Assembly: GCA_934254585.1 (NCBI GenBank)
Contig: CAKQLF010000001.1
Location: forward strand, 245,250 to 309,249
Reading direction: 5' to 3'
From: an uncultured Alphaproteobacteria bacterium
Lineage (GTDB): Bacteria; Pseudomonadota; Alphaproteobacteria; RF32; CAG-239
DNA length: 64,000 bases
The position numbers and the translations under genes were made by a program. Shown here one piece after another: positions 18,290 to 54,739 of the stretch; the first letter of the stretch is position 1; each line of letters starts with the position of its first letter. Under the pieces are notes generated by a model, which saw nothing but the letters and a program-made list of their open reading frames with translations, searched no databases and was not told the DNA's origin.

Positions 18290-18325
18290 AGAAACAGCGG
18301 TTATCTCCCGCTGTTTCTTTTTTGT
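18290..18325. terminator. Bidirectional hairpin terminator between convergent genes
   Basis: Perfect 10-bp stem gaaacagcgg/ccgctgtttc with T-runs on both sides. Overlaps the last codons of the minus-strand gene. Confidence 0.5.
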
Positions 18326-19551
18326 AAAAATTGTTGCAAATTAAGAGTTTTTTCTGTTCCGTCTTTTCTGATGATTGTTCCGTCAGAATTTGTTGCGGGA
18401 CGTTGCGTGCGCGTCATATCCACTTTTTGGGTTTCATCGGGAGTCAAAATTTTATCAACCATTTCTTTTATTTCTTGTTTGTCGTCTTTTACTTTTTGAT
18501 TGAATTGACTGTACATATCGTCAGCACCCTCATAGCCGGCAATGGCTAGCTGTCTAGCGGTTTCAAGTGTTATGTAGTTGCACCGATTACATTCTTTGGC
18601 TTTGTTTAACACTTTCGTTTCCGCCAGATTTCTTTCGGAATTACAACCGAAAGCAATTGAGGATGACAGATATACACCTGCATTGCCGACTGAAACGCAA
18701 GAAGCGTCACGAAGCCCGTTTTTTTGGGCGAAAAGTTTAGCTTTTTTGGCGGGAATATTTTTGCCGTTTTCAATCGGATAAAAAGCTATGGCATATTCTT
18801 TTTCCGCTTTCATCAATTCATCATAGTGTTCTGAGCTCAGCTTTTTTATGTCGTTTATAAAGGCATTTGAGAAACGGCGCGGGCTTTTAGGCGTCGCACC
18901 TCTTTCTGTTATTCCGACAACAGAAAGTTTGTTCATATCTCTCAAGGCTTTTTGTCGTTCTAAGACGCCGGAAACTCCGGTTTTCAGCTCTCCGTCTTCA
19001 GTGTAAAGCTGTTTTCGTGCTTTTTCAAGAATTTCCGCATTTTCAGGAGTGTTTTTTATGTATTTGGCCGCTATATTGTGTAGATTTTCATCGGGAGAGC
19101 AATATAAACTGCGAACAAAATTTTTAGCAATAACCTCATTACCCTGAAAAATAAACATTCTGGTTCGAGCCTTGTTTAAATTGACAATATCACCTTTTTG
19201 TCCTTCACGATTTTCCATAACACTGGTCACTTCGTGGTTATAGATTTCGCGAGAATCCACGCGTTTGACATTCATTAAACCATCGTTACGCCAATCATCA
19301 ACATTCATAATATATTCCGTGTGTCGGTTGATGGCGGCATATTCTTGAGGAAGTTCTTGGGCTTTTTCAAAAGAAATGGTTTTGCCTGATATTTCCGGAA
19401 CAGCCTCTATATTTACTTCTTTAGGGGTTGAAGTAATGGTCATTGTGGTTGTTTCGTTTTCTTTTTCAGAGGGAAGCACATTTTGCGCCGTCATTTGGGT
19501 GGAATAGCTGGAAACCGCACCGACAGCCGCAATTTTAAGATAAGTTTTCAT
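18301..19551 (-). CDS. Secreted hypothetical protein
   Basis: Signal peptide begins at [15 protein letters not shown] (start moved to 19551). No recognisable domain. Possible host-interaction protein. Confidence 0.4.
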
Positions 19552-19732
19552 TTTGTTGATTTTTTCGGACAATGTATTTTCTTTTGTGTTGACAACCATT
19601 TTATATCTTCCTCCATCTGTTACCATATTTATAATAACATATTTATGTTTGATAATCCAGTTTTTTATTGAAAAAAAAATTTGTCAAGGTTATAGTCACG
19701 TTAGTTTATTTTATTTATGTAGGACAATGAAA

Positions 19733-22355: not shown

Positions 22356-22430
22356 GGTCCCATCGTCTAATGGTTAGGACATCACCCTTTCACGGTGGCA
22401 ATATGGGTTCGAGTCCCGTTGGGATCACCA
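22356..22430 (+). tRNA. tRNA-Glu (anticodon UUC)
   Basis: 75-nt cloverleaf. Acceptor GGTCCCA/TGGGATC, anticodon loop CTTTCAC, T-loop GGTTCGAGTCC, encoded CCA. The overlapping ORF 22395..22805 is spurious. Confidence 0.85.
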
Positions 22431-22543
22431 ATACAAACGGCAGGCAGTAAAAAGCCTGCTTTTTCTTTTATTTCCAAGTACTTATGCGAGTTCGAATCTT
22501 TGTTTTTTGAAAACTGCGATTTTGGGAAGTTTTTCCGAACTCG
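22424..22543. repeat. Direct repeat copy 0 (tRNA 3' end plus flank; att-like), tRNA-proximal
   Basis: atcaccaatacaaacggcagg...ctttatttccaag...cgagttcgaa...tttgaaaactgcgattttggg...ccgaactcg. Contains a terminator hairpin (22436-22463) and a cgagttcg/cgaactcg inverted repeat. Confidence 0.7.
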
Positions 22544-25287: not shown

Positions 25288-26397
25288 TTAATCATTTTCA
25301 TAATCAATTTCTTCAAAACGCAAATTTGTATCATCAATATAATATGTGACATACTTAATCTTGCAAATATAAGTTTCATTAAATTTCTTTAAGGCTTCAA
25401 TACTTTTTAGGTATCTTTTTGTTTTCCTGTTTGTTTTTTTAACAATAATTGTAGGCTCTATTATATCTGGAATCGGCTGAAAATATTGTTTAATCCAACG
25501 TAAATATCTTCCGATTTGCTCTGTTATCTCGGGATAAATAGTTGTTGATTTCAATTCCATAGGTATTAATATTCTTTTATTAGTTTCTGCATTTGTAGCC
25601 ATTAACATAATATCAATCCGCCGCATACCAACGCCACACATTACTTCATTACCTAACCACTCCATTCTGCTATTATTTAAAAAGATTTCCTTCAACTCTG
25701 AATCAGCATCAATAGACTGAGTTATATATGTTTGCAAAAAAGCTTCATAAGCGTAACTGGTATATATCAATTTGCGTTTCACATTGATAGGGTGTGAAAA
25801 TTCTAAGTTATACTGGCTTCGCACACCCTCTATTATGGTTTTACTGTTTTGATCATATGAAAATTGCGAAAAAGCAAGAGGTATATTATCATTTTTAGAG
25901 CTAATCATATCAATTAATCGTTTTGACTCAGCTGGAGTTATCATTGTATTACCCCTATTACCATCTAGCTTTCTATAAATCAACGACCATAAAATATCAT
26001 TAGGTTTTTCAACTCCATCTAAATTATCCAAAGCTTCCCATTCAGTTACTCCTTTGGCGAAAACTATATCAGGCTCTAATAAAACACGAAAAGTAAGTTT
26101 TTTAGACAATTCTGGTGTTGCTTGGGATTTGGGATCAATAAAGCATCTATCTTTTGCTTGAAATACGCCATAAAAATGACCTTTACCCAATTCTCCAGTA
26201 CAATAGAAAATAATTTTATCTCCTTTGCGTATTCGCGCAGAATCCGCCATCATACCAACCAAATTTTGGGCAACCTTTTGATTTTCCGCTGTATCATTAA
26301 ATTCTACATCTAAATCTCTAGCTCCTGTGCCAGCAAACATATACTTTAAATGTAACGGGAAAGTTTTTTCATTTACAATAAAAACATGTGTGGTCAT
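25288..26397 (-). CDS. Putative restriction endonuclease (C-terminal PD-(D/E)xK-like motif) with N-terminal PUA/EVE-like barrel
   Basis: 369 aa, last gene of the MTase operon. RIDIML...IPMELK fits D...ExK. N-terminal GDKIIFY...GHFYGVFQ resembles PUA-like/EVE folds. Not recognisably DpnII/MboI-like. Confidence 0.4.
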   Translation of the reverse strand: MTTHVFIVNEKTFPLHLKYMFAGTGARDLDVEFNDTAENQKVAQNLVGMMADSARIRKGDKIIFYCTGELGKGHFYGVFQAKDRCFIDPKSQATPELSKKLTFRVLLEPDIVFAKGVTEWEALDNLDGVEKPNDILWSLIYRKLDGNRGNTMITPAESKRLIDMISSKNDNIPLAFSQFSYDQNSKTIIEGVRSQYNLEFSHPINVKRKLIYTSYAYEAFLQTYITQSIDADSELKEIFLNNSRMEWLGNEVMCGVGMRRIDIMLMATNAETNKRILIPMELKSTTIYPEITEQIGRYLRWIKQYFQPIPDIIEPTIIVKKTNRKTKRYLKSIEALKKFNETYICKIKYVTYYIDDTNLRFEEIDYEND

Positions 26398-26408
26398 AGT
26401 CTATATGC

Positions 26409-27209
26409 TCATTTCCTAAATAAAAATATATACTCGTGCTTAAACAAATACAAACCATTAGATAATGCTCTATACCGCCATAAAGCTTGCTGATTTTGTT
26501 TACCTTTAGTTGTGTCAAAATTTTTAACAATTATTGATTTAAGTTTCAGTTTTTCTCTCTGTGCTGCTTGCATTGCGTAAAAACCTAATGGAACAATTTC
26601 ACCATTAGCATACTTATCACCAATGACAATTACAAGGTATCTCCCTTTTGCTAAAACCTCTACACTTTTCTTTATTATTAGCTGAAACCTCTCAATAAAA
26701 TCTACCAATGTTTTGGAATTACTAAGGTTATCCTCATCTTGTCCAAATTTTATAATATCCCAATAAGGAGGATGCAAGATAACGAGCTGCACCTCTTTAA
26801 GATTATGATTATTTAATTCTTGCATATAGTTAATCTTTAAACTATCGCCACATACAAGAGAGGCTTCTGCTTTACAACCTTCATCTAAAAATCTTGCAGC
26901 ATTATCAAGTGCTTGTTGAGTTTGAAGACATGTATCTTGATTTATTTCAAAACCAAGAGCATTACGATTAAGTCGCCTTGCTTCAATTAAGGTTGTTCCT
27001 CCTCCTGCAAATGGATCTAAAACCCAATCCCCAGCTTTTGTATATCTCATAATAAACTGGTAAGGAATCTGAGGAACAAAATTTCCCCAAAAACCATTTT
27101 TATGTCCATGCTCATTATCTCTTTTATCAATAAGCCATAATGAATCAGTCCAGATATCTGTTAGATTTTTCCAATTATGTAAATCAAGCTCATTTATCTT
27201 ATTCATCAA
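26409..27209 (-). CDS. DNA N6-adenine/N4-cytosine methyltransferase (N6_N4_Mtase family), second MTase of the locus
   Basis: Motif I DPFAGGGTT and motif IV HPPY. Its start overlaps the Dam-like MTase stop by 4 nt. Confidence 0.7.
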   Translation of the reverse strand: MMNKINELDLHNWKNLTDIWTDSLWLIDKRDNEHGHKNGFWGNFVPQIPYQFIMRYTKAGDWVLDPFAGGGTTLIEARRLNRNALGFEINQDTCLQTQQALDNAARFLDEGCKAEASLVCGDSLKINYMQELNNHNLKEVQLVILHPPYWDIIKFGQDEDNLSNSKTLVDFIERFQLIIKKSVEVLAKGRYLVIVIGDKYANGEIVPLGFYAMQAAQREKLKLKSIIVKNFDTTKGKQNQQALWRYRALSNGLYLFKHEYIFLFRK

Positions 27210-28195
27210 TTTTTCTTCAGTATATGTAAATACTCAATAGTTTTATCAGCTAAATAACTCCTATTAGCATCAGCTTTAAAGCGTTGATAATCTTTTGTTG
27301 CTAAGGAATATTCACCATATTTGTTCATTGTAGATTTTATATCATCAACAGACATCAAACCTTCATTATTATAACTTAAAAAAATATATTTAAATTTGGC
27401 ATTTTTTATCAAATCATCAAAACTATCTAAAACTTTATCTCTTTTACAATATAATGAACGACTATAATCTCTGAGCCCTGTTTTACCTTTAGGCTGAAAT
27501 TTATCATACAAAGCTATTGTATTAAGTAAATGATAATTGGCTCCATATTGTCGTTCATTATACGGAGGATCCAGATACAAAATATCACCTTGAATATGTT
27601 TAATAAGTTGATTGGCATCCTCGCAATATACTTGGTGGTCATGGTCATTTATCTGATATAAAGCAGGCTCCAAATTTAATGATTTTTGAGCAGATTTCTT
27701 TAATTTTTTCAAGAATGCACCATATACAGATGCCGTATTTGCAACTCTATCTGCGCTTTCCAATAATGATGCAAGTAAAAAGTAATATTGATTATCTGAA
27801 ATTTTGGCTGTATCTTTCCATACTTGTATTTTATTTCTTATTGCATCAATTTTTTTGCCATTTTCATCAGAAAAATATTGCCGCCCAGAACCACTTCCTA
27901 AACAATAATTATTAAAGATAAAACCTTCTACACCTTCAAGGCTCATCAAATCAGATATTAACTTCTGGTAATCCATAGCCAAATGATTGCCTATATAGTT
28001 ACGATTTAATATATAGCTATATCGTTCAATATCATTAGAAATTATCTGTTTTGTTTTTAATTTGAAATAACGACCAACGATACCTGTTCCTGCAAATAAA
28101 TCACAAAAAACACATGATTTAATATCATTTACGACACGAGATATATTATCATCTAAAAAAGAAAGTAATTTATATTTTGATCCGATATAGTTCAT
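27206..28195 (-). CDS. Dam-family (D12 class, alpha) N6-adenine DNA methyltransferase
   Basis: MNYIGSKYKLL (Dam N-terminal), FAGTG motif I and LDPPY motif IV. Arrangement is like DpnM/MboIA. Confidence 0.8.
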   Translation of the reverse strand: MNYIGSKYKLLSFLDDNISRVVNDIKSCVFCDLFAGTGIVGRYFKLKTKQIISNDIERYSYILNRNYIGNHLAMDYQKLISDLMSLEGVEGFIFNNYCLGSGSGRQYFSDENGKKIDAIRNKIQVWKDTAKISDNQYYFLLASLLESADRVANTASVYGAFLKKLKKSAQKSLNLEPALYQINDHDHQVYCEDANQLIKHIQGDILYLDPPYNERQYGANYHLLNTIALYDKFQPKGKTGLRDYSRSLYCKRDKVLDSFDDLIKNAKFKYIFLSYNNEGLMSVDDIKSTMNKYGEYSLATKDYQRFKADANRSYLADKTIEYLHILKKN

Positions 28196-28258
28196 TGTTT
28201 ACCTTAATTTAAAATTCGATTTAATTTACATATAACGCATAAAAAAATCATTTGTAAA

Positions 28259-28897
28259 TCAAATTTCTCCTTTTCGAGCTTTTTTAATCACTTCTTTTCT
28301 GTATTCTACGGGATCATATTGATAGCATCCTTCACATCCGTAGTCATGCAACGATTTTCCACCTTTATAATAAGCCATTGGATTTCCGTCTAAGTTACGA
28401 GCATCCCAACGCTCTCCAGTTTCCATGCATTTTTTACAAATTTGCCTTTTGGCATCATTTGCAGCTTTTGTAAGAGGCTGAAAGTCATCAATTGTTTGGG
28501 TGCTTAAATCCGAAACGCGAAAATTGTTCTTTCTACCATCTTTGTGATCAATTTCAATTTTGATATTTTCAGAATTACCCCTAATTCCAAGCATTACGCA
28601 GTTTTTATCTTTATAATATTCTTTTATATCTGAACGAATTGTTTGATTAAATGACGCATCAGTATTAAGACCGATTGTTCTAACGGCATCAATAGAATTC
28701 CCCGACGTTTGAGTTTTATCAAATTCCAGCTTATACCTTTTAGCCAAAGTAGACTCTTTACGACACCAACTTCCTCCATTGCCAAGTTTTAATTCCCTGT
28801 ATTCTCCAACGAATTCTGCAACAGAAACCCAGCGGCTATATCCCTGTTCATTTGGTGATGCCAATTCTAAAAATAGTTCAGTTTTTGTTTTTTTCAT
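28259..28897 (-). CDS. Putative HNH/zinc-finger nuclease (candidate restriction or nicking endonuclease)
   Basis: 212 aa. EIDHKDGRKNN (HNH-like D-H...N-N) plus CxxC...CxxC pairs (ICKKC, GCEGC). First gene of the apparent R-M operon. Confidence 0.35.
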   Translation of the reverse strand: MKKTKTELFLELASPNEQGYSRWVSVAEFVGEYRELKLGNGGSWCRKESTLAKRYKLEFDKTQTSGNSIDAVRTIGLNTDASFNQTIRSDIKEYYKDKNCVMLGIRGNSENIKIEIDHKDGRKNNFRVSDLSTQTIDDFQPLTKAANDAKRQICKKCMETGERWDARNLDGNPMAYYKGGKSLHDYGCEGCYQYDPVEYRKEVIKKARKGEI

Positions 28898-29420
28898 AAA
28901 ATGACTCCTTTATTGAAAAGCTTATGTAAATAAAAACAAAAAAACAAGAAATCTTATTTTGTTATCTGCAACTTTTATCGTTTCAACCTTTAACTTGGCA
29001 ATGTCAAAGGTTACAAAATTTCATTTTTAATAAAATTTTTCAAATAATCTCAAAAAACTTTAGTAGAAATTCGCAAGCTTCATATTCTATAAAATATGAC
29101 AAATGCGTATAATCAACTCAAAAATGAGTTATCAATTCTCTATCCCGATGTTACGGATATTGAATTAAAAGAAATGGCAAGCAATCTGATTGATTTTTAT
29201 ACAACGGCTGTAAAAGCCGTTTTAGAAGATGATACAAAAGAATTTGTTACTGATGACAAAAACTCTTCTTCATAACCTTATTTATTTTGTAAATTAGGTT
29301 AATTGTTTGAAAAATCAGCAAAATATTAGCAATAAAGTCGTCAGAAACAGAAAATAACCGCTTACATTCCCAAAATAACGCGACATAATATTATTATGTA
29401 AAAACAAAGGAGTAATGAAT

Positions 29421-31004
29421 ATGGCTAAGAAATACAGATATGCTAAAGCTGCACCATGCGTTCAGGCTGTCATTTTTGCACGCGTATCTACCAAGGAACA
29501 AGAACCAGGGGGTTCTCTAAAGGCTCAGAAAGAAGCAATGGAAGATTATTGTAACAAAAAGGGACTTCCTATTGTTCAGAAATATAAAGCGGTTGAAAGT
29601 TCCACCAATGGCAAACGTACAAAATTCAATGAAATGTTAGACTTTGTAAAAAAGCAGAAACGCAAAACCGCGATTGTTGTCCATTGTATTGACCGTTTTC
29701 AAAGACGCTTCAATGAATGTGTGGAAGTTGAAGAAATATTATTAGATGACAAAACTGACCTGCATTTTTGCAAAGAAAGGTTAATTCTCACTAAAAATAG
29801 TCCGTCTTCTGATATTATGCGTTGGGATATGGGCATTTTATCCGGCAAAATGTATGTGGCAAATCTGCGAGATAATGTTAACAGAGGTATGAATTATAAC
29901 TGGTCGATTGGAAAATATCAGACAAAGGCTCCGGTTGGGTATTTGAATATTAACAAAGACATTATTGTTGATTCAGAACGTGCACCTTTAGTTAAAAAGA
30001 TGTTTGAGATGTATGCGACCGGACAATATTCCGTAAAACGCTTGCAAGAATTTGCCTCGGAAATGAATTTATGTTCTTCTCATTCTAAAACAAATAAACC
30101 ATTAGGACGAGAAACCATATATGCGATGTTAAAAAATCCGTTTTATTATGGTGAAATGGTAATCCGTGGTGAAATTATGCCACATGCTTATGAACCTCTT
30201 ATTTCAAAATCATTATATGATAAAGTTCAAGAAGTGCGTTCTGGTGGTAAAATACATACAAAAATGCGAGAATATGCCGGAATTCCTTTTGTGTTTCGCG
30301 GATTGATAAAATGTGCGGAATGTGACGGCACCATCTCATCAGAACAGCATTTTAAGAAAAGTGGCAGAAAATATACTTATTTGCGTTGTACACACTCAAA
30401 CGGTTGTTGTCATCAAGGTCTGGTTAGCGAAAACCTTTTATTACAACAACTTGATGATGAAGTTTTTAGTAAACTAAGACTTAGCAAGAATATTTTAGAG
30501 CCTCTGAAAAAATGCGTGCAGAAAAAATTGATTGAAGAATCCGAAGCAAATACCATTGTAAAACGCAAGATCTCCGTGGAATTAAACAATCTTGAAGCTA
30601 AAGAGAGACGGGTTAAGGATTCATTTTTTGACGGAGACATAACCAGAGAGGAATGGCAGGAAGAAAAAGCTATTATTGCCACCAAGAGGGAAGAATTACA
30701 ACGGACAGCTAAAAAATATGCCGATATTAGCAAAGATATTCAAGTAACTGTTAATGAAATTTTAGATATTGCGGCAACTGTTTCCGATATTATGAAAAAA
30801 GCTGATTCTACTCAGCAAAATAAATTGTTAAGTCTTATGCTCTCAGAATGTTATCTTGACGGTCAGAGACTAATTTATACGTTGAGAAAACCTTTTGACA
30901 AGCTGATTAACCTCAAAAATGCCAGTACCTGGTTTGATTTTGATAAATCAGACATCAAGGAATACAAAAACAGGACAGATAAAGTGGAGAGGTATAAGAA
31001 TTGA
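29421..31004 (+). CDS. Large serine recombinase (resolvase catalytic domain, recombinase domain, zinc ribbon, coiled coil)
   Basis: AVIFARVSTKEQE catalytic-serine motif. Cys-rich zinc ribbon (CAECDG...CTHSNGCC) and a C-terminal coiled coil. Opposite strand to the rest of the island. Start at 29421 has an aaggag RBS. Confidence 0.8.
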   Translation: MAKKYRYAKAAPCVQAVIFARVSTKEQEPGGSLKAQKEAMEDYCNKKGLPIVQKYKAVESSTNGKRTKFNEMLDFVKKQKRKTAIVVHCIDRFQRRFNECVEVEEILLDDKTDLHFCKERLILTKNSPSSDIMRWDMGILSGKMYVANLRDNVNRGMNYNWSIGKYQTKAPVGYLNINKDIIVDSERAPLVKKMFEMYATGQYSVKRLQEFASEMNLCSSHSKTNKPLGRETIYAMLKNPFYYGEMVIRGEIMPHAYEPLISKSLYDKVQEVRSGGKIHTKMREYAGIPFVFRGLIKCAECDGTISSEQHFKKSGRKYTYLRCTHSNGCCHQGLVSENLLLQQLDDEVFSKLRLSKNILEPLKKCVQKKLIEESEANTIVKRKISVELNNLEAKERRVKDSFFDGDITREEWQEEKAIIATKREELQRTAKKYADISKDIQVTVNEILDIAATVSDIMKKADSTQQNKLLSLMLSECYLDGQRLIYTLRKPFDKLINLKNASTWFDFDKSDIKEYKNRTDKVERYKN

Positions 31005-31101: not shown

Positions 31102-32475
31102 TTAGTTTTCAATTAGATATGAAGAAATCACGCGTATCCAAGATGACAAATACAAGATTTCAATACCTAATTTTTCTTCTAATGTATCTTTAGCTTGTTG
31201 TAATTGCTTCATGATGTCATTAATATTATGCTCTTTTATGAAGTTATATTCTTTTTCTTTATTATATAAATAATGTCTCAAGCACAGTTCTTTGGCTTCA
31301 GTTGTAGGATATGACATCATTACACTATACTCTTGTCCATTTTTACTTTTTCGTATATTGGTCACAGTATTTATAATGCCAAATTCTTGAATATCGCTTT
31401 CAGGGTCATTTTTTATTATTTCTTTACACTGAGGACAATCACAAACTTTTTCAAAATATATACTTTTGCTATTAAGCCATCCTTCATCTAATAACAGCTG
31501 AATTATATTTCTAAAATGAAAGCGTTTGTGAGCTATAGGTAAATAAAATTTAGAAATAGGGACGCCTCCTCCTACGGGGAAAACACTTCTAGATTCTCCA
31601 TATTCCATACCGTGACAACAAGCCTGCAACAATCCCAAATTAATAAGTATTAGTGAAAAATAACTGCCGTATAATTGTGAAACTGGAATGTTTTTTTCTT
31701 TAAATTTTACTAACAAGTATAAATAATTGTTTAGTAAAACATCTCCAGCATCTTTTTCATCAAACGCATCAATCCACAATAAAATTTCACAGGGATTAAC
31801 TTTTGAGTATTCATCAACTAAAAGGTTAAGCTTGTCCTTATCCAACAAAATGCTTGAATTAATAACAAGTTGTGCAGAAATAGAAGGATGATAAGTTTTA
31901 GACAATTCAATCGCTTTAGTATTAATATGTAACCAGTGATTGAAATTATTATCAGATAAATAAAAATAAGGAGCTATTAAACAGCAAGGAGCTACGCATA
32001 AACTGTTTTCATCATTTCCTAAAATATACTCTATGTATTCTTTATATTCATTTTTTTCTTCTAATACTTCTTTTTTTATAGTATTTTGCTGAAATTCAAT
32101 AACTTTTTGACATAGTTCTTTTAAAAAGGTGTCATTATCATCGAAGTCTGTTAACTCAATTGACCGCTTTTTACATGAAATTATATCTTTTAATGTGTCA
32201 CCGTAAAAGCTGAGAAGCTTTTCAATAGATTTTTTCAAATTACCATCAGATCCAATCAAACCTTGATAGTATTGGAATGCATACGTTTGAGGGTCAATTA
32301 TGAAATCTTTTTTACATAATTCATTGCTTATAAATTTGGAAATAGAATTAGTACAATGTGCAAAGATATTTGCATTTAGTATTAAAACATCATATGAATC
32401 ATTAAAACTTGAAACATATTTTTTTTCTGCATTGGTACCAAAGCGTAATAAATGTGTTCCTTTAATCATACCCAA
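31102..32475 (-). CDS. Cys-rich protein with tRNA-guanine transglycosylase (TGT/DpdA)-like motifs; 4th gene of candidate defence operon
   Basis: 457 aa. LNANIFAH (compare TGT LGNTFHL), DPQTYAFQ (compare DSGGFQ), IDAFDE, VGGGVP, a CDCPQC zinc knuckle (compare E. coli Tgt CDCYTC) and a downstream RHYL. Assignment is by motif only. Confidence 0.3.
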   Translation of the reverse strand: MGMIKGTHLLRFGTNAEKKYVSSFNDSYDVLILNANIFAHCTNSISKFISNELCKKDFIIDPQTYAFQYYQGLIGSDGNLKKSIEKLLSFYGDTLKDIISCKKRSIELTDFDDNDTFLKELCQKVIEFQQNTIKKEVLEEKNEYKEYIEYILGNDENSLCVAPCCLIAPYFYLSDNNFNHWLHINTKAIELSKTYHPSISAQLVINSSILLDKDKLNLLVDEYSKVNPCEILLWIDAFDEKDAGDVLLNNYLYLLVKFKEKNIPVSQLYGSYFSLILINLGLLQACCHGMEYGESRSVFPVGGGVPISKFYLPIAHKRFHFRNIIQLLLDEGWLNSKSIYFEKVCDCPQCKEIIKNDPESDIQEFGIINTVTNIRKSKNGQEYSVMMSYPTTEAKELCLRHYLYNKEKEYNFIKEHNINDIMKQLQQAKDTLEEKLGIEILYLSSWIRVISSYLIEN

Positions 32476-32885
32476 ACTCCATTGATTCTGTTTTTAAAAG
32501 CTTCATTTAACCAAATTTTTCCAACCTTCCATACTTTTCTATTATGTTTTGCAGGGTAAATGGTTTCTATTAATTTGTCACTATCCTTATCAAAGAAAAC
32601 AAGACCAACATCAGTTTTTTCCATTGCTTTTGATAATTTTTCGGGTATTTTTTTCTTAGGTTTAGGGATACATATATATACTTCATTTGTGCCTAAAAAA
32701 TGACTCGATGCTTGCTCTATGGCTCGTTTCCAATTATCAATTTTAAATTCAATAGCAATTAATTGGTTTTTTTTAAGGTAAACAAGATCTATAGACTGTT
32801 GCATAAAAGGAACCTCCGTTACAACTTGAATTCCTTTTTTTCTTAAATAATCTTGAACTTTATTTACCATCTCAATTTCGTACAT
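32466..32885 (-). CDS. Small PD-(D/E)xK-like nuclease-fold protein; 3rd gene of operon
   Basis: 139 aa. TEVPF...IDLVYL...IAIEFK gives an E-P...D...ExK pattern like restriction-endonuclease/Hjc-like folds. Confidence 0.35.
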   Translation of the reverse strand: MYEIEMVNKVQDYLRKKGIQVVTEVPFMQQSIDLVYLKKNQLIAIEFKIDNWKRAIEQASSHFLGTNEVYICIPKPKKKIPEKLSKAMEKTDVGLVFFDKDSDKLIETIYPAKHNRKVWKVGKIWLNEAFKNRINGVWV

Positions 32886-32895
32886 AATCCAGTCC

Positions 32896-33423
32896 TTATA
32901 TTATGAAATCTGCTTGTCTTTTTATTTCAGTAGATAAATGCCTAAATCCCATATATGTACCCCATATTCTACAAATGCAGTATAGTAAATAAAGAAAAAT
33001 TATAATTATTAACCCATTAAAGATATCTAAATATTTTTCTTGCGCAAAGACTTTTCCATATTTACTGCATAAGAGCCAAGCATTTTTTATAGCTGCAGTA
33101 CCAAAAATTAAGATAGCGGAAACTATTAACCTTGAAGTGTATTTTGCATATTTATTGATATGTTTCTTTAAATTTATTTTATTCTCAAAAGCTACAGACA
33201 TTTGCTTGATGAATAAAGAGAAGGATGTGCTCATACTATCGTCATATACTAGATTATTGTGTATTTTATTTTCTATTTTTTCAATAAATTCGGCAAGAAG
33301 CGAAGTTTTCGTCAATAAAAGTGAATTTAAAATTTGATTAGCTTTATCATCAAATTTAGTAAATATAGGGAAAATAATTCCCAGTAGAACACCTGCAACT
33401 GCTAAAATATCCTCAAATCCCAT
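32896..33423 (-). CDS. Small multi-pass membrane protein (candidate toxin/effector); 2nd gene of operon
   Basis: 175 aa with 3-4 hydrophobic helices. Sits 3 nt downstream of the Panacea-domain gene. Confidence 0.4.
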   Translation of the reverse strand: MGFEDILAVAGVLLGIIFPIFTKFDDKANQILNSLLLTKTSLLAEFIEKIENKIHNNLVYDDSMSTSFSLFIKQMSVAFENKINLKKHINKYAKYTSRLIVSAILIFGTAAIKNAWLLCSKYGKVFAQEKYLDIFNGLIIIIFLYLLYCICRIWGTYMGFRHLSTEIKRQADFII

Positions 33424-33426
33424 TAT

Positions 33427-34014
33427 TTAATAACCTTTCAATACTTTTTCTTTTATTTTTGATTTCTCAGTAAATTCCGGGTATTTAGTATATACATATC
33501 GCAAAATATCACGCAACTTTGCCTTATTGTATCTGGCTTTAAATGCTGATAAAATTTCTTTTTGATTATTAGACAAGCTTTCATATTTATTCTTTTGCTG
33601 AATGAACTGAACTCCTTTGTCACTGATTTCAAAGCGTTCTAATGCATATTCAACAGGTTTTACATCTAATTCTTTTTCCGCATAATCATTAAATTCTGAA
33701 ATTTCTTCATAAGTTAAAATATCACTACTATTTGAATATGAAGTTGAGATAAAATCTATATTTTTTAAGAAATCAATATCTTTAAATGCTTTAATAGACA
33801 TTGGACCAAAATTCCAAGCGGTAAAGAAAAACAAATCATCACTATATTCCAGTGTATCTTCAGTAAATTTTTTTAAAATTTCTTTTTCAAAAATAAAAAG
33901 GAGTTTTGTTAATTTTGTCCGACCTTCTATAGCTTCGCGGAATTCTTTTGTATAACCGGGAGAATACAAAAGCAACATGATTATATCAACAGATGTTAAT
34001 TTTATTTTGGACAT
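33427..34014 (-). CDS. Panacea-domain (DUF4065/GepA-like) protein, candidate antitoxin; 1st gene of operon
   Basis: 195 aa. TKLTKLLFIF...FTAWNFGPMSIKAF matches the Panacea hallmark (T/N)KLQKLLY...AWxxGPV. Confidence 0.45.
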   Translation of the reverse strand: MSKIKLTSVDIIMLLLYSPGYTKEFREAIEGRTKLTKLLFIFEKEILKKFTEDTLEYSDDLFFFTAWNFGPMSIKAFKDIDFLKNIDFISTSYSNSSDILTYEEISEFNDYAEKELDVKPVEYALERFEISDKGVQFIQQKNKYESLSNNQKEILSAFKARYNKAKLRDILRYVYTKYPEFTEKSKIKEKVLKGY

Positions 34015-34123
34015 TGTAAAACCTTTACGAACTACTCTAATATATTATAATACAATTTATTCCTATCAAGTTAAGAAATAATAAATTAATTTGCACAGCT
34101 TTTAATCTTTTTAGCTCGGAAAC

Positions 34124-34245
34124 TGTGAGGTAAGCATCACCAATACAAACGGCAGGCATAAAAACCTGCCGTTTTGCTTTATTTTCCAAGCCTTTCAGCG
34201 AGTTCGAATGTTGTAAATTTGAAAATTGCGTTTTCGGTTTTTTGT
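34124..34245. repeat. Direct repeat copy 1 (att-like, tRNA 3' end plus terminator hairpin)
   Basis: gtgaggtaagcatcaccaatacaaacggcaggcataaaaacctgccgtttt...ctttattttccaagcctttcagcgagttcgaa...tttgaaaattgcgttttcgg. Near-identical to copies 0 and 2. Confidence 0.7.
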
Positions 34246-34264: not shown

Positions 34265-35080
34265 TCAACGTCGTATTCCTATGTCTCTTAAAGTTTGATT
34301 AACGATTTTATTAACATTATTTTGTTGTCTTTCCTTAGCAAAAAATCTATTTCCAGCTTTTACGCAATCCGGGCAAATCGGAGATAAGCCTTCTCTTTTG
34401 CAAGCTAATCTGGCTCTTGTTATATCGCTGAAATCTCCATCAACTCTTTGTTGCATAATACAAAGACCATCTTCGTCCGTACAATGAGTTCCATAAATAT
34501 CGGCAGAATTTTCCCTTCCTTCATAGGTGAGGCCTATTACATGGCCAAATTCATGCATTAATACAGTTTTGAAATTTTCACAATCAATGATGTTGCCAGA
34601 GTCGTCTGAAAATCTGCGGGCAGAAACGACACATCCAATTCCTTCATCTCCCAACCCGAAACAATAATTCATTTCTTGATTGGGATATAAATCATCTTTG
34701 GTAAGTAAAATTGTAAATTGCGGAATTTCTTTATTTGTTGGATCGGTCTGCATGGTTTGAAATAATGTGCTTGCATTTAATTGATTAGGACGACCGTCTA
34801 GGATAGCATCTCTTTTGGCATTTTCAATGTGCCAGCGTGTACTTTTATATGGAGCCAGATAAAGCTTGCCGTTTTCCGGATATATATATCCAGTGTCTTT
34901 CCATGCACCTAAATTCGTGATTGGATAATCATTTTTATATTGAGGAAAGCAAGCCATCAATTCTTTTATGGCTTCAACGGCTATTTGGTTTGCCTGAGGA
35001 TTGAGACCGTCTTGGCTGACAATAAATATATCTTTTTGCTTCATAAACGTTATCCCCCTCCTTAGTATAGAATATACCAT
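34265..35080 (-). CDS. Archaemetzincin-like zinc metalloprotease (peptidase M54-like)
   Basis: HEFGHVIGLTYE...HCTDEDGLCIM...CPDC fits the archaemetzincin signature HExxHxxGxxH + CxxxxCxM + CxxC. Confidence 0.6.
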   Translation of the reverse strand: MVYSILRRGITFMKQKDIFIVSQDGLNPQANQIAVEAIKELMACFPQYKNDYPITNLGAWKDTGYIYPENGKLYLAPYKSTRWHIENAKRDAILDGRPNQLNASTLFQTMQTDPTNKEIPQFTILLTKDDLYPNQEMNYCFGLGDEGIGCVVSARRFSDDSGNIIDCENFKTVLMHEFGHVIGLTYEGRENSADIYGTHCTDEDGLCIMQQRVDGDFSDITRARLACKREGLSPICPDCVKAGNRFFAKERQQNNVNKIVNQTLRDIGIRR

Positions 35081-35124
35081 AATTTTATGTAAAAAAAAAG
35101 AAGTTTCAGCTTGTGAAACATAAA

Positions 35125-35249
35125 TTAAGCATCACCAATACAAACGGCAGGTATAAAAAACTGCCGTTTTTCTTTATTTTCCAAGCCTTTCAGCGAGTTC
35201 GAAAGTCGTATTTTCGAAAACCGCTTTTTGGGAAGTTTTTACGAACTCG
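35125..35249. repeat. Direct repeat copy 2 (att-like)
   Basis: ttaagcatcaccaatacaaacggcaggtataaaaaactgccgttttt ctttattttccaagcctttcagcgagttcgaaag...ttttgggaagtttttacgaactcg. Overlaps the last ~22 codons of the 35190..35843 gene. Confidence 0.7.
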
Positions 35250-35843
35250 TTTATGTTGATTTTTTTGTTTATAACAAATTGTTACCAATACATCATTGTT
35301 TGGATAACCATATAAATTGGAATCATATTGCGGATTACTCACTTTGATGTATTTTGTTTCTCCGTAATTAATTTTTCCCAGCGCATGCGAAACATATCCA
35401 CTTCCGTCTCTAGGGGCATAATAAGGAATTGAACCTTTGATAGCAAACATTCTCACATATCCTCCCTTTTTATCTTTAGCTTCTTCTCCTGTCCAAAAAT
35501 AGATGTGACTATCGTTTTCCCAAATATTCATAGCTTTCATAAGTGAATCGTTTCTATTACCATAAATGCTTGTTTCTGTTGTTTCCTTATTATATATTTT
35601 TTTTGCTAATTTATGTAGATCATTTCCTGTAGGTAGATTCTCAATGTGCCCGCAAGCTTTGGCTGCACCAGCTAGGTAATCATTGTCATAAGGACAATAT
35701 TTTAAGCCGAGAGTTTCTTTATAAGAGAGGCATTCTTTTTGACTTAATGGAGTATATTCTACTTTTATGAAGTCTTTTGCATAAGCATGATTGATTAGGC
35801 CTATACTGATAATGCTTAGTATTTTTATGCTATTTTTAATCAA
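35190..35843 (-). CDS. Secreted protein of unknown function (signal peptide)
   Basis: 217 aa. Signal peptide MIKNSIKILSIISIGLINHAYA. C-terminal tail (RKNFPKSGFRKYDFRTR) is encoded inside repeat copy 2. Confidence 0.5.
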   Translation of the reverse strand: MIKNSIKILSIISIGLINHAYAKDFIKVEYTPLSQKECLSYKETLGLKYCPYDNDYLAGAAKACGHIENLPTGNDLHKLAKKIYNKETTETSIYGNRNDSLMKAMNIWENDSHIYFWTGEEAKDKKGGYVRMFAIKGSIPYYAPRDGSGYVSHALGKINYGETKYIKVSNPQYDSNLYGYPNNDVLVTICYKQKNQHKRVRKNFPKSGFRKYDFRTR

Positions 35844-35925
35844 AGTAGTCTCCTAGTGATAATTATGATGCCTTTTGAACATATTATTTATTCATTAATA
35901 TATCATTAAACAGTAGCTCGTAATT

Positions 35926-35979
35926 TGTGAGTTAAGCATCACCAATACAAGCGGCAGGTATAAAAACCTGCCGTTTTTT
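35926..35979. repeat. Direct repeat copy 3 (truncated, att-like), followed by a strong GC hairpin 35992-36013
   Basis: tgtgagttaagcatcaccaatacaagcggcaggtataaaaacctgccgtttttt, then aaaaccccgcg ttaga cgcgggg ttt. Confidence 0.65.
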
Positions 35980-36114
35980 GTATAAAGAAAACCCCGCGTT
36001 AGACGCGGGGTTTAGTGTAGTTTATAGCGGTGAGTTTGACAAAGTGCTTCTAGTAATTACTTTAACACAAACTTTTTAGAAACTTAAAGCATAACCCCAC
36101 AAAATGCTACAGAC

Positions 36115-36723
36115 TCAAAATTTACTTTTTATATAGCGATGTATTGTTATCCAACTGCAGTCCATCAATCTGGCCATTTCGGCTTTTGATATGCCTTTAT
36201 TTATCAGTTCGACAATTTTATTATGTTTTTTCTCAAGTTTTTGATATGAAAGTCCTCGTGGTCGTCCAAGCCGTTTTCCCTCATCTTTTAGGCGTTTTAG
36301 CGAGTTTTTTGTTCGCTCGGAAATCAACTGGCGTTCCAACTCTCCGACTAATGAAAAGGCAAAGGCTAAAATTTTACTTTGAATATCAGCACCTAAGCGG
36401 TAATTTTCTTTCAATGTCCAGATTTGGCAACCTTTTTCCAAACAATGTTGCAAAATTCCCATAACTTCAAGCAAATTTCTTCCTAAACGGCTTAATTCGG
36501 TTGCAATTAAAATATCTCCTTTTTTAAGCTTTTTCAATAATTTACCAAGTTTTCGTTCGGTGAGCAATTTGCGTGAAGAAATTGTTTCTGAAATCCATTT
36601 ATCAATAGGGATATTGTGTTGTTGCGTATAAGTTAGAATTTCGTGTTGTTGGTTTTGGGTGTTTTGATGGTCGGTGCTAACCCGAATATAAGCGTAGTAC
36701 ATAAAAAAAGTCCTTATAGTCAT
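36115..36723 (-). CDS. Small serine recombinase (resolvase/invertase family) with C-terminal HTH
   Basis: YAYIRVSTDHQNTQNQ catalytic-serine motif, ELSRLGRN and C-terminal HTH (ISKAEMARLMDCSWITIHRYI). Probable start at MYYAY (36702). Confidence 0.8.
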   Translation of the reverse strand: MTIRTFFMYYAYIRVSTDHQNTQNQQHEILTYTQQHNIPIDKWISETISSRKLLTERKLGKLLKKLKKGDILIATELSRLGRNLLEVMGILQHCLEKGCQIWTLKENYRLGADIQSKILAFAFSLVGELERQLISERTKNSLKRLKDEGKRLGRPRGLSYQKLEKKHNKIVELINKGISKAEMARLMDCSWITIHRYIKSKF

Positions 36724-52316: not shown

Positions 52317-53717
52317 CTATCTTGCGCCGATTAAAGAAACAGAAGAAATTGTGTCGCCCATACCGACCAGAGTTAAGGGTTTTTCGATAATAATGGTTGG
52401 AACGGCTATAATGTCATAGTTTTCATATTGACAGATTCCGCTTTCAATCAGTTCGGGTTTTTGCAAATACTCGGACAATTCTTGCAGATTGTTAAGACTG
52501 ATTTCGGAAACTTCTTTGCCGTGCGCCCATAACAGTTGCGCGTGGTCTTCTATTTTTCCGGTGCCGGCTTTGGTGGCGGCAACAGTAGAAGCAAGCATCA
52601 TACCGCGCAGGTTTTGTTCCGCCGAAAGACGAAAGCCTTTATCTTGCAAAGTCAAATACAAGCCGAACATATGCAGTTGAATCCGCGGTGCTTGCGTTTT
52701 TTCTTTTATAAGGCGCACAATTTCAAACAGGCGCGGAGAGGTTAAGTCTTCGTGAGCCAATTCTTGATATTTTTGCGGATTGACAACTTCCAAGGCATCC
52801 AAAGCTTCCCGCTCATTCAAGCCGAGCGAATCGGCAAGCGGAGCAATTTTTTCGATGATGGCGGTGCGCACTTTTTTATCTTGGGTAGAAGCCAACTCCA
52901 AGTGGATAACTCCTTGCGGATTGTGTTTTTTCCAATCTTTAATTAAAGCTATGGAGTTGTTGACCAATTCTACGCCATTACGCTTAGAAGTCAAATTGTG
53001 ATAGCCGGAAAGCACCAAGTAATCATAGCCGTTTTGCGACAAGTGTTTCACAAAATCCGGATTGATAACCAAATCAATGTTGGCGGGGTCATAGGTGGCA
53101 ATAAAACGATTAGACTTTGGACAGGTAAATTCTTTGCCCCAAGCCGTAAACGAATCGCCGATGTCAAATTCAATAATCCAATGGATAAGCGGTGTTTCGG
53201 CGGCGCGGTCAATATCTGCGGCGCGGCAGACTTTTCCGTTTTCATCAATACCGAAAAGGTTTTCTAAGGGCAAAAATTGTTGGGCTTGCAGTTTGGGGTG
53301 AGAATTGGTATGAACAAAAACATTTTGCACACCCAAAACGGCTAAGGCATTGGCAACAATTCCACCTTGTCCACCCATTTGCAGATGGTCGTAACCTAAA
53401 TTTTGTCTCATCCATTCATAAACCGATTTATCATCGGTAATCCATTCTTCGGCAATGCCGCGGCTAAAACATTTGGCTATGCCGTGCACCACGTCTTGCG
53501 GATTTTCCAATAAAGTGCGCGGACTGTCAAACTCTTTTTCGGTCAGATTGGTCGTTTTTAGCAATTCGGCAATTTTTTTCCCGCTGATTTTTAAAACCGC
53601 GTCAATATTGGTGTTAAAAGCTGTGGCGGCGGAATGTACCTCTTTTACTTTTTCCAACTGAGCGGGAACAGCGGCGTATTTTTTTAACCAAAGTTTTTGC
53701 AAGGCGGCAATCGTCAT
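52317..53717 (-). CDS. ADP-dependent sugar kinase (ADP-glucokinase/phosphofructokinase family, archaeal type)
   Basis: MGGQGGIVANALAVLG (compare GGQAGIMAN) and C-terminal VGMGDTISSVSL (compare GDTISAG), 466 aa. Confidence 0.6.
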   Translation of the reverse strand: MTIAALQKLWLKKYAAVPAQLEKVKEVHSAATAFNTNIDAVLKISGKKIAELLKTTNLTEKEFDSPRTLLENPQDVVHGIAKCFSRGIAEEWITDDKSVYEWMRQNLGYDHLQMGGQGGIVANALAVLGVQNVFVHTNSHPKLQAQQFLPLENLFGIDENGKVCRAADIDRAAETPLIHWIIEFDIGDSFTAWGKEFTCPKSNRFIATYDPANIDLVINPDFVKHLSQNGYDYLVLSGYHNLTSKRNGVELVNNSIALIKDWKKHNPQGVIHLELASTQDKKVRTAIIEKIAPLADSLGLNEREALDALEVVNPQKYQELAHEDLTSPRLFEIVRLIKEKTQAPRIQLHMFGLYLTLQDKGFRLSAEQNLRGMMLASTVAATKAGTGKIEDHAQLLWAHGKEVSEISLNNLQELSEYLQKPELIESGICQYENYDIIAVPTIIIEKPLTLVGMGDTISSVSLIGAR

Positions 53718-54739
53718 TTTGTTCTCTCCATTTCTTTTAGATGTAAGTTGGCTAGCGAATTCATAATCAATCCATTAACGGAATGTTCAAATTCAAGATA
53801 GTCACGAGTTTGCAAAATCCAAGCGTTGAGTTCGGCAGAATTTATGTCACCATATTTGCGGTCGGTTTGGATTTTGTTCAAAGCCTCGGCAAAATCACCA
53901 TTGTTAACCAATTGATAAATTTCGTCCGGTGTCTTTGGAAAAACCAGAGTCGGTTTATTTTCTCTTTTTTTCAAAACAACCAACTCTTTTAATTTGCGTA
54001 TAAGAGCTTCATTCCAAGTTTCTTGAATTTCCGGTTCAGTTGTTTTGTTGATTTGCGGGCGGCTTAAATCAGTGTAAACTTTATGAAATTCACTGATAAG
54101 CATGGCTCGACCTTTGATACCGGAAACAGCATATTTTTTGAGAGCCGAAATATAATTCAAAGCGGTGGCGTTGCCTTCGGCCAGAATTTGCAACACTTCG
54201 GTTTCATAGTCAAACGGCAGGCCGTCTTCCGCCAAGCCTTTTACGGTGAGTGCCCCGGCGGCAAGCAAAACTTCCGGAGCTGTTACAGCGGCGGAAACAT
54301 TGGTGGAAACATTGGTGGAAACGATTGGTGCGTTATCGTAAACTTTTTCGGTTTGCGGTAAAAGCGGAATAATTTTAGCGGCAAGTTGTTGCAAATCTTC
54401 TTCGGACAGCGGAGAAGATTTAGTTAAGTTTTCCGAAGATGGCTGTTGTAGCTGATTGATTAAAGTTTCTTGTTGCTGTAACTGTTTTTTGAGATTGTTT
54501 ATTTTTTTATTGTAATCGGCCGCGAGCTGAGACGCCAAGTCGGTGTTCAGCGTTTTGGTCAATTCAATGTTATAGGCAACAAAGCCGGCACAGCAAAGCA
54601 ATAATACAAAACAAACGATAGCGGAATAATTTTTTTGACGAGGTTGCTTTTTTTTGCTTTCAACATTCTCTGCCGCAACAGGGGTAACTTCTTCTTTTTT
54701 TTCGATTTTAGCCATTTTCTGTATCCTTTTTCTTGACAA
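53714..54739 (-). CDS. Membrane-anchored coiled-coil protein
   Basis: Single N-terminal TM, then a coiled coil with a tandem STNVSTNV. 341 aa. Confidence 0.4.
   Translation of the reverse strand: MSRKRIQKMAKIEKKEEVTPVAAENVESKKKQPRQKNYSAIVCFVLLLCCAGFVAYNIELTKTLNTDLASQLAADYNKKINNLKKQLQQQETLINQLQQPSSENLTKSSPLSEEDLQQLAAKIIPLLPQTEKVYDNAPIVSTNVSTNVSAAVTAPEVLLAAGALTVKGLAEDGLPFDYETEVLQILAEGNATALNYISALKKYAVSGIKGRAMLISEFHKVYTDLSRPQINKTTEPEIQETWNEALIRKLKELVVLKKRENKPTLVFPKTPDEIYQLVNNGDFAEALNKIQTDRKYGDINSAELNAWILQTRDYLEFEHSVNGLIMNSLANLHLKEMERTK

Follow-up and report, generated by a model that had tools for sequence, protein, structure and literature searches.

A candidate four-gene abortive-infection cassette on an alphaproteobacterial tRNA-Glu islet, with a predicted TIM-barrel protein of a large unannotated family in its core

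Gene D lies in a 64,000-nucleotide stretch of DNA from an uncultured Alphaproteobacteria bacterium (GenBank assembly GCA_934254585.1, contig CAKQLF010000001.1, positions 245,250 to 309,249 of the forward strand), and this whole stretch is referred to below as the window. The gene is the last of an operon of four, A-B-C-D, and its product, protein D, is predicted to be a TIM barrel with a C-terminal zinc-binding module resembling that of tRNA-guanine transglycosylase (TGT). Genes A, C and D are found together in many bacterial phyla, accompanied by a fourth gene that specifies either a predicted membrane protein (B) or a SIR2 protein (E), and the cassette is a candidate for an abortive-infection system whose core is undescribed and centres on a new, large protein family. 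That the four genes form a conflict system is considered probable. The more specific proposal, in which gene D supplies the TGT-fold-derived core of a mobile, four-gene abortive-infection or toxin–antitoxin-type anti-phage system, is evenly balanced between being right and being wrong.

A conserved cassette with an exchangeable fourth gene

The conserved four-gene context, which the initial annotation had missed, is the strongest evidence available. In the window, the operon spans 34014 to 31102 on the minus strand, and its genes, in the order in which they are read, are as follows.

33427–34014, minus strand: gene A, the first gene of the operon, specifying a 195-aa Panacea/SocA-like protein (Pfam SocA_Panacea, PADLOC PDC-M19A)
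32896–33423, minus strand: gene B, specifying a predicted three-pass membrane protein of 175 aa (hydropathy; transmembrane segments 6–24, 99–117 and 132–150)
32466–32885, minus strand: gene C, specifying a 139-aa minimal PD-(D/E)xK nuclease-like protein (Pfam MTES_1575 at 2.2e-5, CoiA_nuc)
31102–32475, minus strand: gene D as called from open reading frames, 457 aa from a TTG start
31102–32469, minus strand: gene D from an ATG start, specifying a 455-aa predicted TIM-barrel protein with a C-terminal CxCxxC...H module

All open reading frames (ORFs) around gene D were clustered in a set of 87 loci, which included 80 from GTDB species representatives and six from metagenomes. Cultured strains with the cassette include Pseudomonas cuatrocienegasensis CIP 109853 (NZ_FOFP01000018.1), which has the TM form, and Moorella mulderi DSM 14980 (NZ_LTBC01000003.1), which has the SIR2 form. 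Genes A and C accompany gene D in 85 of the 87, across many phyla; by ORF clustering, gene C (about 144 aa) was found in 86 loci and gene A (about 198 aa) in 84. Mapping with hidden Markov models (HMMs) distinguished three gene orders, A-(B)-C-D (50 loci), A-C-D-E (15 loci) and the cyclic permutation D-E-A-C (15 loci), the loci outside these three being mainly at contig ends. The fourth gene alternates between B (46 loci, in all of which it comes after gene A) and the SIR2 gene E (33 loci), and in 15 loci the SIR2 gene directly precedes A. The only recurring families around the 87 loci were A, C, B-like, SIR2 and recombinase genes, with no conserved DpdB or 7-deazaguanine synthesis gene among them.

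D, A and C have strongly correlated pairwise distances (r = 0.87, 0.82 and 0.76; Mantel p ≤ 0.001), and the three have therefore been inherited as a unit despite a patchy range of hosts, which includes Planctomycetota, Omnitrophota, the candidate phyla radiation, Bacillota, Spirochaetota, Pseudomonas, Bacteroidota, Campylobacterota and others. Among 20 sampled genes lying directly beside the cassette, eight have mobile or conflict functions (type I S subunit, MmeI-type restriction–modification enzyme, C5 methyltransferase, serine recombinases, transposase, NERD nuclease and Pol-beta nucleotidyltransferase), and defence-island enrichment around the cassette, read from these 20 flanking genes without a genomic background, is suggestive. 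A conserved cassette, swappable effectors, a patchy distribution and defence or mobile neighbours (the last scored without a background) are thus all found in this group of loci. A conserved core combined with alternative membrane-directed or NADase killers and a mobile, patchy spread is the pattern seen in abortive infection.

Several described systems place a SIR2 or membrane effector on a conserved sensing core and share a patchy, mobile distribution, including Thoeris ThsA, DSR, SIR2-HerA, SPARSA and the transmembrane (TM) effectors of cyclic-oligonucleotide-based anti-phage signalling systems (CBASS). The cassette differs from these in carrying no TIR, HerA, Argonaute, CD-NTase or STAND component, and its core matches none of theirs. 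When compared with PADLOC v2, no system was matched beyond a hit of gene A to PDC-M19A of the candidate system PDC-M19 (E-values of 7.7e-11, obtained in the window, to 5e-10), but this covers only part of a 294-position model, and B, C and D match no other PDC-M19 model. In the literature, of which coverage was incomplete, no description of the cassette was found under Panacea together with SIR2, TGT-like defence components or PDC-M19.

One alternative is that there is no integrated system at all: A with B (or A with E) would be an ordinary PanAT pair, and C–D a separate two-gene module hitch-hiking beside it. Panacea antitoxins normally occur in two-gene pairs with very diverse toxins, TM toxins included (PMC8832971), and the likeness of the cassette to PanAT is considerable, as gene A is Panacea/SocA-like, a small TM protein is encoded next to it (B directly follows A in the window) and the toxin partners are interchangeable. 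However, PanAT are two-gene modules whereas gene A is locked to C and D; the three are together in 85 of the 87 loci through three gene orders, one of them a cyclic permutation, their pairwise distances are strongly correlated, and the A-C-D-E form separates A from the effector. In addition, a SIR2 partner is present in one third of the loci, and SIR2 is not mentioned in the PanAT study (PMC8832971). Two separate modules are considered very improbable.

Some single loci show other arrangements. A contig binned as Escherichia coli (L068, 5992–9400) carries the D-E-A-C form with its SIR2 gene split (207 + 283 aa), and the cassette adjoins two Dcm-type methyltransferases; since it has no match among 5,426 complete E. 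coli genomes, this contig is probably mis-binned. In Moorella mulderi DSM 14980 (L030), a second SIR2-family ORF (831 aa) lies upstream of the cassette, and in another locus (L037) gene A is present in tandem copies (A-A-C-D). In the latter two loci, the system may have been duplicated or one variant nested in another.

The partner proteins A, B, C and E

Several homologues of the gene A product (40–41% identity) carry PF13274 or bear the names 'SocA family protein' or YwgA, and its adjacent, interchangeable putative toxin partners are in keeping with membership of the Panacea/SocA family. PanA, representing the Panacea/DUF4065 antitoxins, neutralises membrane-depolarising TM toxins by direct binding (PMC8832971). 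Since Panacea domains bind and neutralise unrelated toxins directly, A is the likely keeper of B or E.

The putative effectors are of two kinds. Among the 46 B products, 44 score two to four TM segments, and their sequences evolve fast; B is the variable, putatively toxic effector. The gene E product is matched by PF13289 and by the PADLOC SIR2 models, and its GAGxS motif, catalytic Asn (N163), His (H222) and four-Cys ribbon are each conserved at 90% or above, from which it is predicted to be a catalytically intact SIR2 NADase.

The small gene C product also matches the Csx1 nuclease region of PADLOC (5.7e-5), PDDEXK_4 and the CARF_PDDEXK nuclease region. The motif E...D...ExK (E4, D34, E47 and K49) is 99% conserved in 79 homologues, and on this evidence the protein appears to be a minimal PD-(D/E)xK nuclease whose active site is intact.

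Protein D and its family

Gene D is a genuine gene. The 457-aa ORF described in the initial annotation is real (minus strand, 31102–32475, from TTG), but the ATG at 32469 is more likely to be the start than the TTG at 32475. This ATG and the TGA stop of gene C, which lies upstream, overlap as ATGA, and a GGAG lies 8 nt upstream of it (the sequence around the 5' end is GGAGTTTGGGTATGATT), because of which the product is likely to be of 455 aa and translationally coupled to gene C. The residue numbers used here follow the 455-aa form.

A word-indexed search of 5.8 billion proteins retrieved 119 homologue clusters, down to 24% identity, all of them named 'hypothetical' and all lacking Pfam domains. 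When 1.84 billion representatives were searched exhaustively with a HMMER profile, the number rose to 1135 clusters (at 50% identity) at E ≤ 1e-3, with 593 at E ≤ 1e-30. The relatives are nearly all stand-alone proteins of 430–480 aa, and domain fusions gave no hint of function, as two longer members carry merely unrelated or mis-started extensions. Protein D matches nothing in Pfam, NCBIfam, PADLOC or PHROGs. By its sequence it belongs to a large unannotated family, which needs a Pfam entry and a function.

All conservation figures for protein D come from an alignment of 244 sequences. Columns conserved at 90% or above are N32, D59-P60, T62, F65, K79, Q127 and P161; P167-Y168-F169, W179, N183, W232 and E238; G268, S272, H286, Y290-G291-E292 and R294; P298, G300–302, P304, Y309, H314 and R316; and C343, C345, C348, H399, E407 and W444. 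Individual values include N32 90%, D59 99%, P60 100%, W232 100% and E238 96%, while P298, G300–302 and P304 range from 93 to 99%. The putative zinc ligands are among the most constant positions (C343 99%, C345 95%, C348 99% and H399 100%).

The initial annotation had likened protein D to TGT on the basis of six motifs, and all six do occur in it: LNANIFAH (31–38), DPQTYAFQ (59–66), IDAFDE (233–238), VGGGVP (299–304), CDCPQC (343–348) and RHYL (398–401). Since their columns are among the most conserved across the 244 members, they are not the product of chance in a single sequence. A second metal site, suggested from extra Cys pairs in APCC and ACCHG, was rejected. The column of C162 holds K, E or A in relatives, that of C163 holds F, A or L, and that of C284 holds V, while C285 is Cys in only 99 of the 244 sequences; the extra pairs are not conserved and therefore give no basis for such a site.

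The AlphaFold2 model of protein D, built from a 42-sequence alignment, has a predicted local distance difference test (pLDDT) score of 92.6 and a predicted template modelling score of 0.91. Its eight beta-alpha units form a TIM barrel, with strands at 6–10, 28–32, 55–59, 163–165, 197–204, 229–234, 263–265 and 283–287, so that the barrel expected of a TGT relative was found, and with confidence. The large insertion that had been seen between the second and third motifs was also borne out, as a helical insertion of about 100 residues (62–160) after strand 3. The barrel is followed by a conserved Gly-rich loop (EYGExRxVxPVGGGxP), a hairpin (307–318), short helices with C343, C345 and C348, a variable hairpin (366–388) and finally two long C-terminal helices, with H399 on the first. 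Seven of the eight barrel strands are followed by conserved polar residues, and the ends of the barrel strands are the usual place of a TIM-barrel active site.

Relationship to tRNA-guanine transglycosylases

In its predicted structure, protein D has a (beta/alpha)8 barrel and, towards the C-terminus, a zinc-binding subdomain, as do members of the TGT family (Tgt/QTRT1 and archaeosine TGT; PF01702), and the barrel, hairpin and CxCxxC...His elements are predicted to follow each other in the same order. The zinc-ligand pattern itself, CxCxxC...His, is present in the sequence alignment; in Zymomonas mobilis TGT, the ligands are C318, C320, C323 and H349. In Foldseek comparisons with the PDB, the highest coverage of the model was given by TGT and archaeosine TGT structures (query-normalised TM-scores of 0.43–0.47, with 1IQ8 at 0.47, 2ASH at 0.46 and 1J2B at 0.44), the other matches listed reaching at most 0.36, and for Thermotoga maritima TGT (2ASH) the target-normalised score was 0.52–0.55. 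The first three barrel units may also parallel those of TGT in order and spacing, with ...GT, N and D...FQ after strands 1, 2 and 3. The last of these is D59, which is 99% conserved, follows strand 3 and is possibly equivalent to the Asp after strand 3 of TGT (Z. mobilis D102). Going by the model, a TGT-like fold and zinc site are plausible.

Support from sequence comparison is confined to the zinc module. The TGT alignment used consisted of E. coli Tgt (its sequence verified against PDB 10FA at 884 bits), close homologues, and TGTs of phages and viral contigs at 36–68% identity. With hhalign, the family aligned to TGT along the CxCxxC segment alone (Prob 4.7%, P = 0.0085), and a relaxed alignment with the 244-sequence profile (P = 0.0049) paired C343, C345 and C348 with E. 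coli C302, C304 and C307, and H399 with H333; at low confidence it also paired D59 with D89, and the E. coli nucleophile D264 with Y309. The C-terminal third of protein D by itself reached Prob 52% (P = 1.4e-4) in one run and Prob 23% (P = 9e-4) in a second, and its score of 27.2 compares with 10.9 ± 2.3 for column shuffles, none of 400 reaching it (maximum 21.5). Among the sequence comparisons, the zinc module is the only similarity of protein D to TGT that survives a control. Additional TGT sequences did not improve the profile match beyond the zinc knuckle, no family member matched a TGT, DpdA or Cap10 model of NCBIfam or PADLOC, and TGT was not among the results when the PDB was searched by sequence with the protein, with its full profile or with the profile of its C-terminal part. 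A tgt gene that could serve as an internal reference was not found in the window or the fetched loci.

These results divide the collinearity with E. coli Tgt that had been claimed for the six motifs, and likewise answer the profile–profile comparison that had been suggested to check it: the CxCxxC...H region beats the shuffles, but the barrel lies below the mean of its null and shows no similarity above it. The model also places two of the proposed motif pairs out of register. In TGT, MIFDE follows the fourth strand and GVGKP is on the seventh, and IDAFDE and VGGGVP of protein D cannot match them because they come after strands 6 and 8. Similarly, the pairing of RHYL with YLHHL does not stand, as the E. 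coli residue aligned with H399 is the zinc ligand H333 and not one of the histidines of YLHHL.

Two Asp residues of the TGT active site are likewise missing from their expected positions. In TGT, the catalytic nucleophile is the Asp that follows strand 8 (D280 in Z. mobilis, D264 in E. coli), and between residues 260 and 320 of protein D no Asp is conserved at 90% or above in the 244 sequences; the conserved residues of this region are H286, Y290, E292, R294, Y309, H314 and R316. The base-binding Asp (Z. mobilis D156, after strand 4) also lacks a counterpart, since strand 4 of protein D is followed by A-P-Y-F. Protein D therefore differs from TGT in having no significant HMM or profile match, no conserved Asp nucleophile and no base-binding Asp/Gln, and also in the added helical insertion of about 100 residues after strand 3, in the variable hairpin that separates the His from the Cys knuckle, and in lacking the N-terminal three-stranded sheet. 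Furthermore, tgt is a housekeeping gene whereas gene D is part of a mobile four-gene cassette. What is left of the deep-branching TGT/DpdA-like enzyme first envisaged is the fold and the zinc module, but not the enzyme assignment, for which there is neither a family model nor a nucleophile Asp. Protein D is not filed here as a TGT or a DpdA because the sequence-defined tests failed and the nucleophile is lacking. Its derivation from the TGT fold, as judged from the model, is moderately favoured.

Another view of the barrel is that it is unrelated to TGT and that the knuckle is convergent. Protein D, still a part of the four-gene system, would then make, destroy or sense a small-molecule signal; it might, for instance, bind a nucleotide or a phosphorylated sugar at the G-rich PVGGGxP loop. 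In sequence the barrel gives no signal towards TGT, and the top Foldseek E-values belong to GH10 xylanases, dehydroquinase, aldolases and KGPDC-type phosphate-binding barrels; the Gly-rich loop after the last strand could be seen as recalling the standard phosphate-binding site of such barrels, and the best PADLOC match of C is to the nuclease domain of CARF effectors, which are activated by nucleotide ligands. Against this, coverage of the query by TGTs is clearly above that by the other barrels listed, the order of barrel, hairpin, CxCxxC, helix, His and helices equals that of TGT (as in the Z. mobilis structure), the zinc module scores above every shuffle, and no sugar- or nucleotide-metabolism genes are linked to the cassette. 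An unrelated barrel is possible, if rather unlikely.

The initial annotation went on to suggest that the enzyme might insert a modified base into DNA or RNA. In a system of this kind, D would be a DpdA-like transglycosylase, C its matching restriction nuclease, which would leave modified self DNA uncut, and A with B or E an addiction or back-up device. Protein D does share with DpdA of the Dpd 7-deazaguanine system (PDB 7UI4) a TGT-type fold (predicted for D), a mobile island and a link to conflict systems, and it retains the zinc module; D59 in 'IIDPxTHAFQ' resembles the Asp of TGT 'TDSGGFQ' and was aligned with it in one hhalign run. The translational coupling of C and D in the window, the intact PD-(D/E)xK active site of C and the frequency of restriction–modification genes as neighbours are also consistent with it. 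However, there is no conserved Asp at the nucleophile or base-binding positions, and the TGT, DpdA and Cap10 models are unmatched. DpdA acts together with the DpdB ATPase and preQ0 synthesis genes, whereas gene D is linked to none, with no DpdB-like ATPase, QueC/D/E or FolE among its conserved neighbours. Abortive-infection systems, and not restriction–modification systems, typically exchange TM and SIR2 effectors in this way, and the D-E-A-C form puts C beside A and not beside D. With neither a nucleophile Asp nor a conserved DpdB or 7-deazaguanine synthesis neighbour, base insertion in the manner of DpdA is rather disfavoured, and the scheme built upon it is quite improbable.

A TGT relative with a role in defence is known. 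Cap10 of type IV CBASS is a TGT-family protein repurposed for anti-phage defence, which lost its zinc site on conversion to a protein-binding role (bioRxiv 10.1101/2025.04.06.647259). As read here, protein D would be similar to Cap10 in placing a TGT-family barrel with remodelled surfaces in an anti-phage system, in a role outside tRNA modification. In contrast to protein D, Cap10 is still recognisably homologous to QTRT1 and has a QueC-like enzyme and a CD-NTase as partners, while protein D keeps its zinc ligands, matches no PADLOC model and has wholly different partners.

Proposed mechanism and significance

On the preferred reading, that of a TGT-derived core in an abortive-infection cassette, the system would comprise three constant parts (A, C and D) and one swappable killer (B or E), which in the window is B. 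Protein D would have kept the barrel, post-barrel hairpin and CxCxxC...H zinc module of TGT, and in its rebuilt site D59, Y168, E238, H286, E292, R294, Y309, H314 and R316 would replace the TGT nucleophile and base-binding residues. Because of this densely conserved pocket and the retained zinc module, the step of ligand recognition or catalysis is best assigned, as a candidate, to D; in TGTs, the zinc module supports and stabilises nucleic-acid binding. Together with nuclease C, protein D may recognise a nucleobase-bearing ligand that arises on infection, candidates being a nucleotide or else nucleic acid that is foreign or modified. This recognition step would loosen the hold of A on the effector, and the freed effector would depolarise the membrane (B) or destroy NAD+ (E), stopping the infected cell. 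In this scheme, we infer the TGT ancestry, the identity of the ligand, the formation of a complex, the order of events and the anti-phage phenotype.

A stronger form of the proposal would make protein D an active descendant of the TGT fold, with a Glu/His/Tyr site in place of the Asp and with chemistry at the N-glycosidic bond as the immune sensing step. It could excise or exchange a base in phage nucleic acid, such as 7-deazaguanine or other hypermodified bases with which phages evade restriction, or it could make a nucleobase-derived signal, and either output, with nuclease C, would free the membrane or SIR2 toxin held by the Panacea protein. An active enzyme of this type is considered unlikely, but if sensing of this kind were true both the principle of immune sensing and, for the TGT superfamily, the catalytic solution would be new, in a family of more than 1000 clusters across bacteria.

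A number of observations weigh against the preferred reading, in both its halves. For the TGT relationship, full-length hhalign probabilities of the protein D family against TGT were 5–7%, the barrel alone scored 12.1 against a shuffled null of 15.4 ± 3.2 (145 of 160 shuffles reached 12.1), and PF01702 gave no match even at E ≤ 10, either with the window protein or with 41 homologues. In the structural comparison, TGT E-values of 1e-2 to 4e-2 are no better than those of generic TIM barrels, and GH10 xylanases rank above TGT, the best E-value in the PDB (5.6e-4) being to one of them. What supports the ancestry is a short zinc motif and a structure that is predicted. For the partners, gene A of the window falls below the gathering cut-off of SocA_Panacea (PF13274; E 8.4e-4, 20.7 bits, cut-off 25.7), and a fold search with its model (pLDDT 91.5) gave only weak winged-helix, PadR and DarTG-entry matches; B and E have no obvious ligand-sensing domain, and the route by which they would be activated is a guess. 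Of the 20 flanking genes sampled, seven are housekeeping genes and the remainder, beyond the eight mobile or conflict genes, are without known function. Finally, homologues of protein D were absent from the phage, plasmid and complete E. coli collections searched.

If the preferred reading is true, the cassette would be a widespread four-gene bacterial immune system, undescribed in the libraries searched, with protein D represented by at least 1135 clusters at 50% identity in many phyla, human-gut bacteria included. Its core would unite a Panacea 'universal antitoxin', a minimal nuclease and a zinc-knuckle barrel of TGT-derived appearance, which have not previously been seen together. It would also be a second independent recruitment from the queuosine pathway to antiviral defence, after Cap10, and a natural experiment on the wiring of Panacea domains into sensing modules. 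Even if the TGT ancestry is wrong, the cassette stays a well-defined and testable defence candidate.

The tRNA-Glu islet

The surroundings of the operon in the window include the following features.

22356–22525, plus strand: tRNA-Glu gene and left att-like repeat (22397–22525), from ARAGORN and a repeat search
25288–28897, minus strand: restriction–modification cluster with an IceA/NlaIII-family endonuclease (PF05315, 1.6e-100)
29415–31004, plus strand: large serine recombinase of 529 aa, convergent with gene D (Pfam Resolvase, Recombinase, Zn_ribbon_recom)
34109–34237, no strand given: att-like direct repeat at the right islet end, from the repeat family and its alignment to the tRNA-Glu 3' end

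The mobile-island context noted in the initial annotation is well supported by low GC, att-like repeats of tRNA-Glu, a serine recombinase and restriction–modification genes. The operon stretch has a GC content of 27–34%, compared with 37–43% in its flanks, and the low-GC stretch lies directly downstream of tRNA-Glu, which is the islet integration site. Four direct repeats of about 130 nt (22356–22525, 34109–34237, 35104–35232 and 35911–36039; 62–83% identity) consist of the tRNA-Glu 3' end ('ATCACCA') and the downstream terminator hairpin, and they bound one islet of 11.7 kb (22.4–34.1 kb) and two mini-islets of about 1 kb each. The repeats at 34109, 35104 and 35911 look like the outcome of serial (tandem) integration at one tRNA attachment site. 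The 11.7-kb islet contains two DNA methyltransferases, the IceA/NlaIII-type endonuclease, the large serine recombinase, which is the likely islet integrase, and the cassette. Besides the endonuclease, the restriction–modification cluster holds a D12-class N6-adenine methyltransferase, an N6_N4 methyltransferase and a 369-aa ORF with no Pfam match. The repeat at the right end contains a G+C-rich terminator-like hairpin (34147–34174) and is situated just upstream of the operon promoter region, where promoter-like sites were seen at 34105–34042.

The chromosome in the window is that of a Gram-negative bacterium, with Lpt, SurA, Mla and FtsK genes, and gene D is 99% identical to a copy in an alphaproteobacterial metagenome-assembled genome from the Hadza gut. 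Outside the island, two ORFs on the minus strand, 53714–54739 (341 aa) and 18301–19626 (441 aa), have no Pfam match at E ≤ 1e-5. Each mini-islet carries one ORF on the minus strand (34265–35080, 271 aa; 35190–35843, 217 aa) with no Pfam or PHROG match, and decayed integrative elements may have left these two behind as cargo of one gene each, possibly with a role in defence. A gene for a small serine resolvase/invertase of 202 aa (36115–36723, minus strand) closely follows the last att-like repeat and adjoins ftsK.

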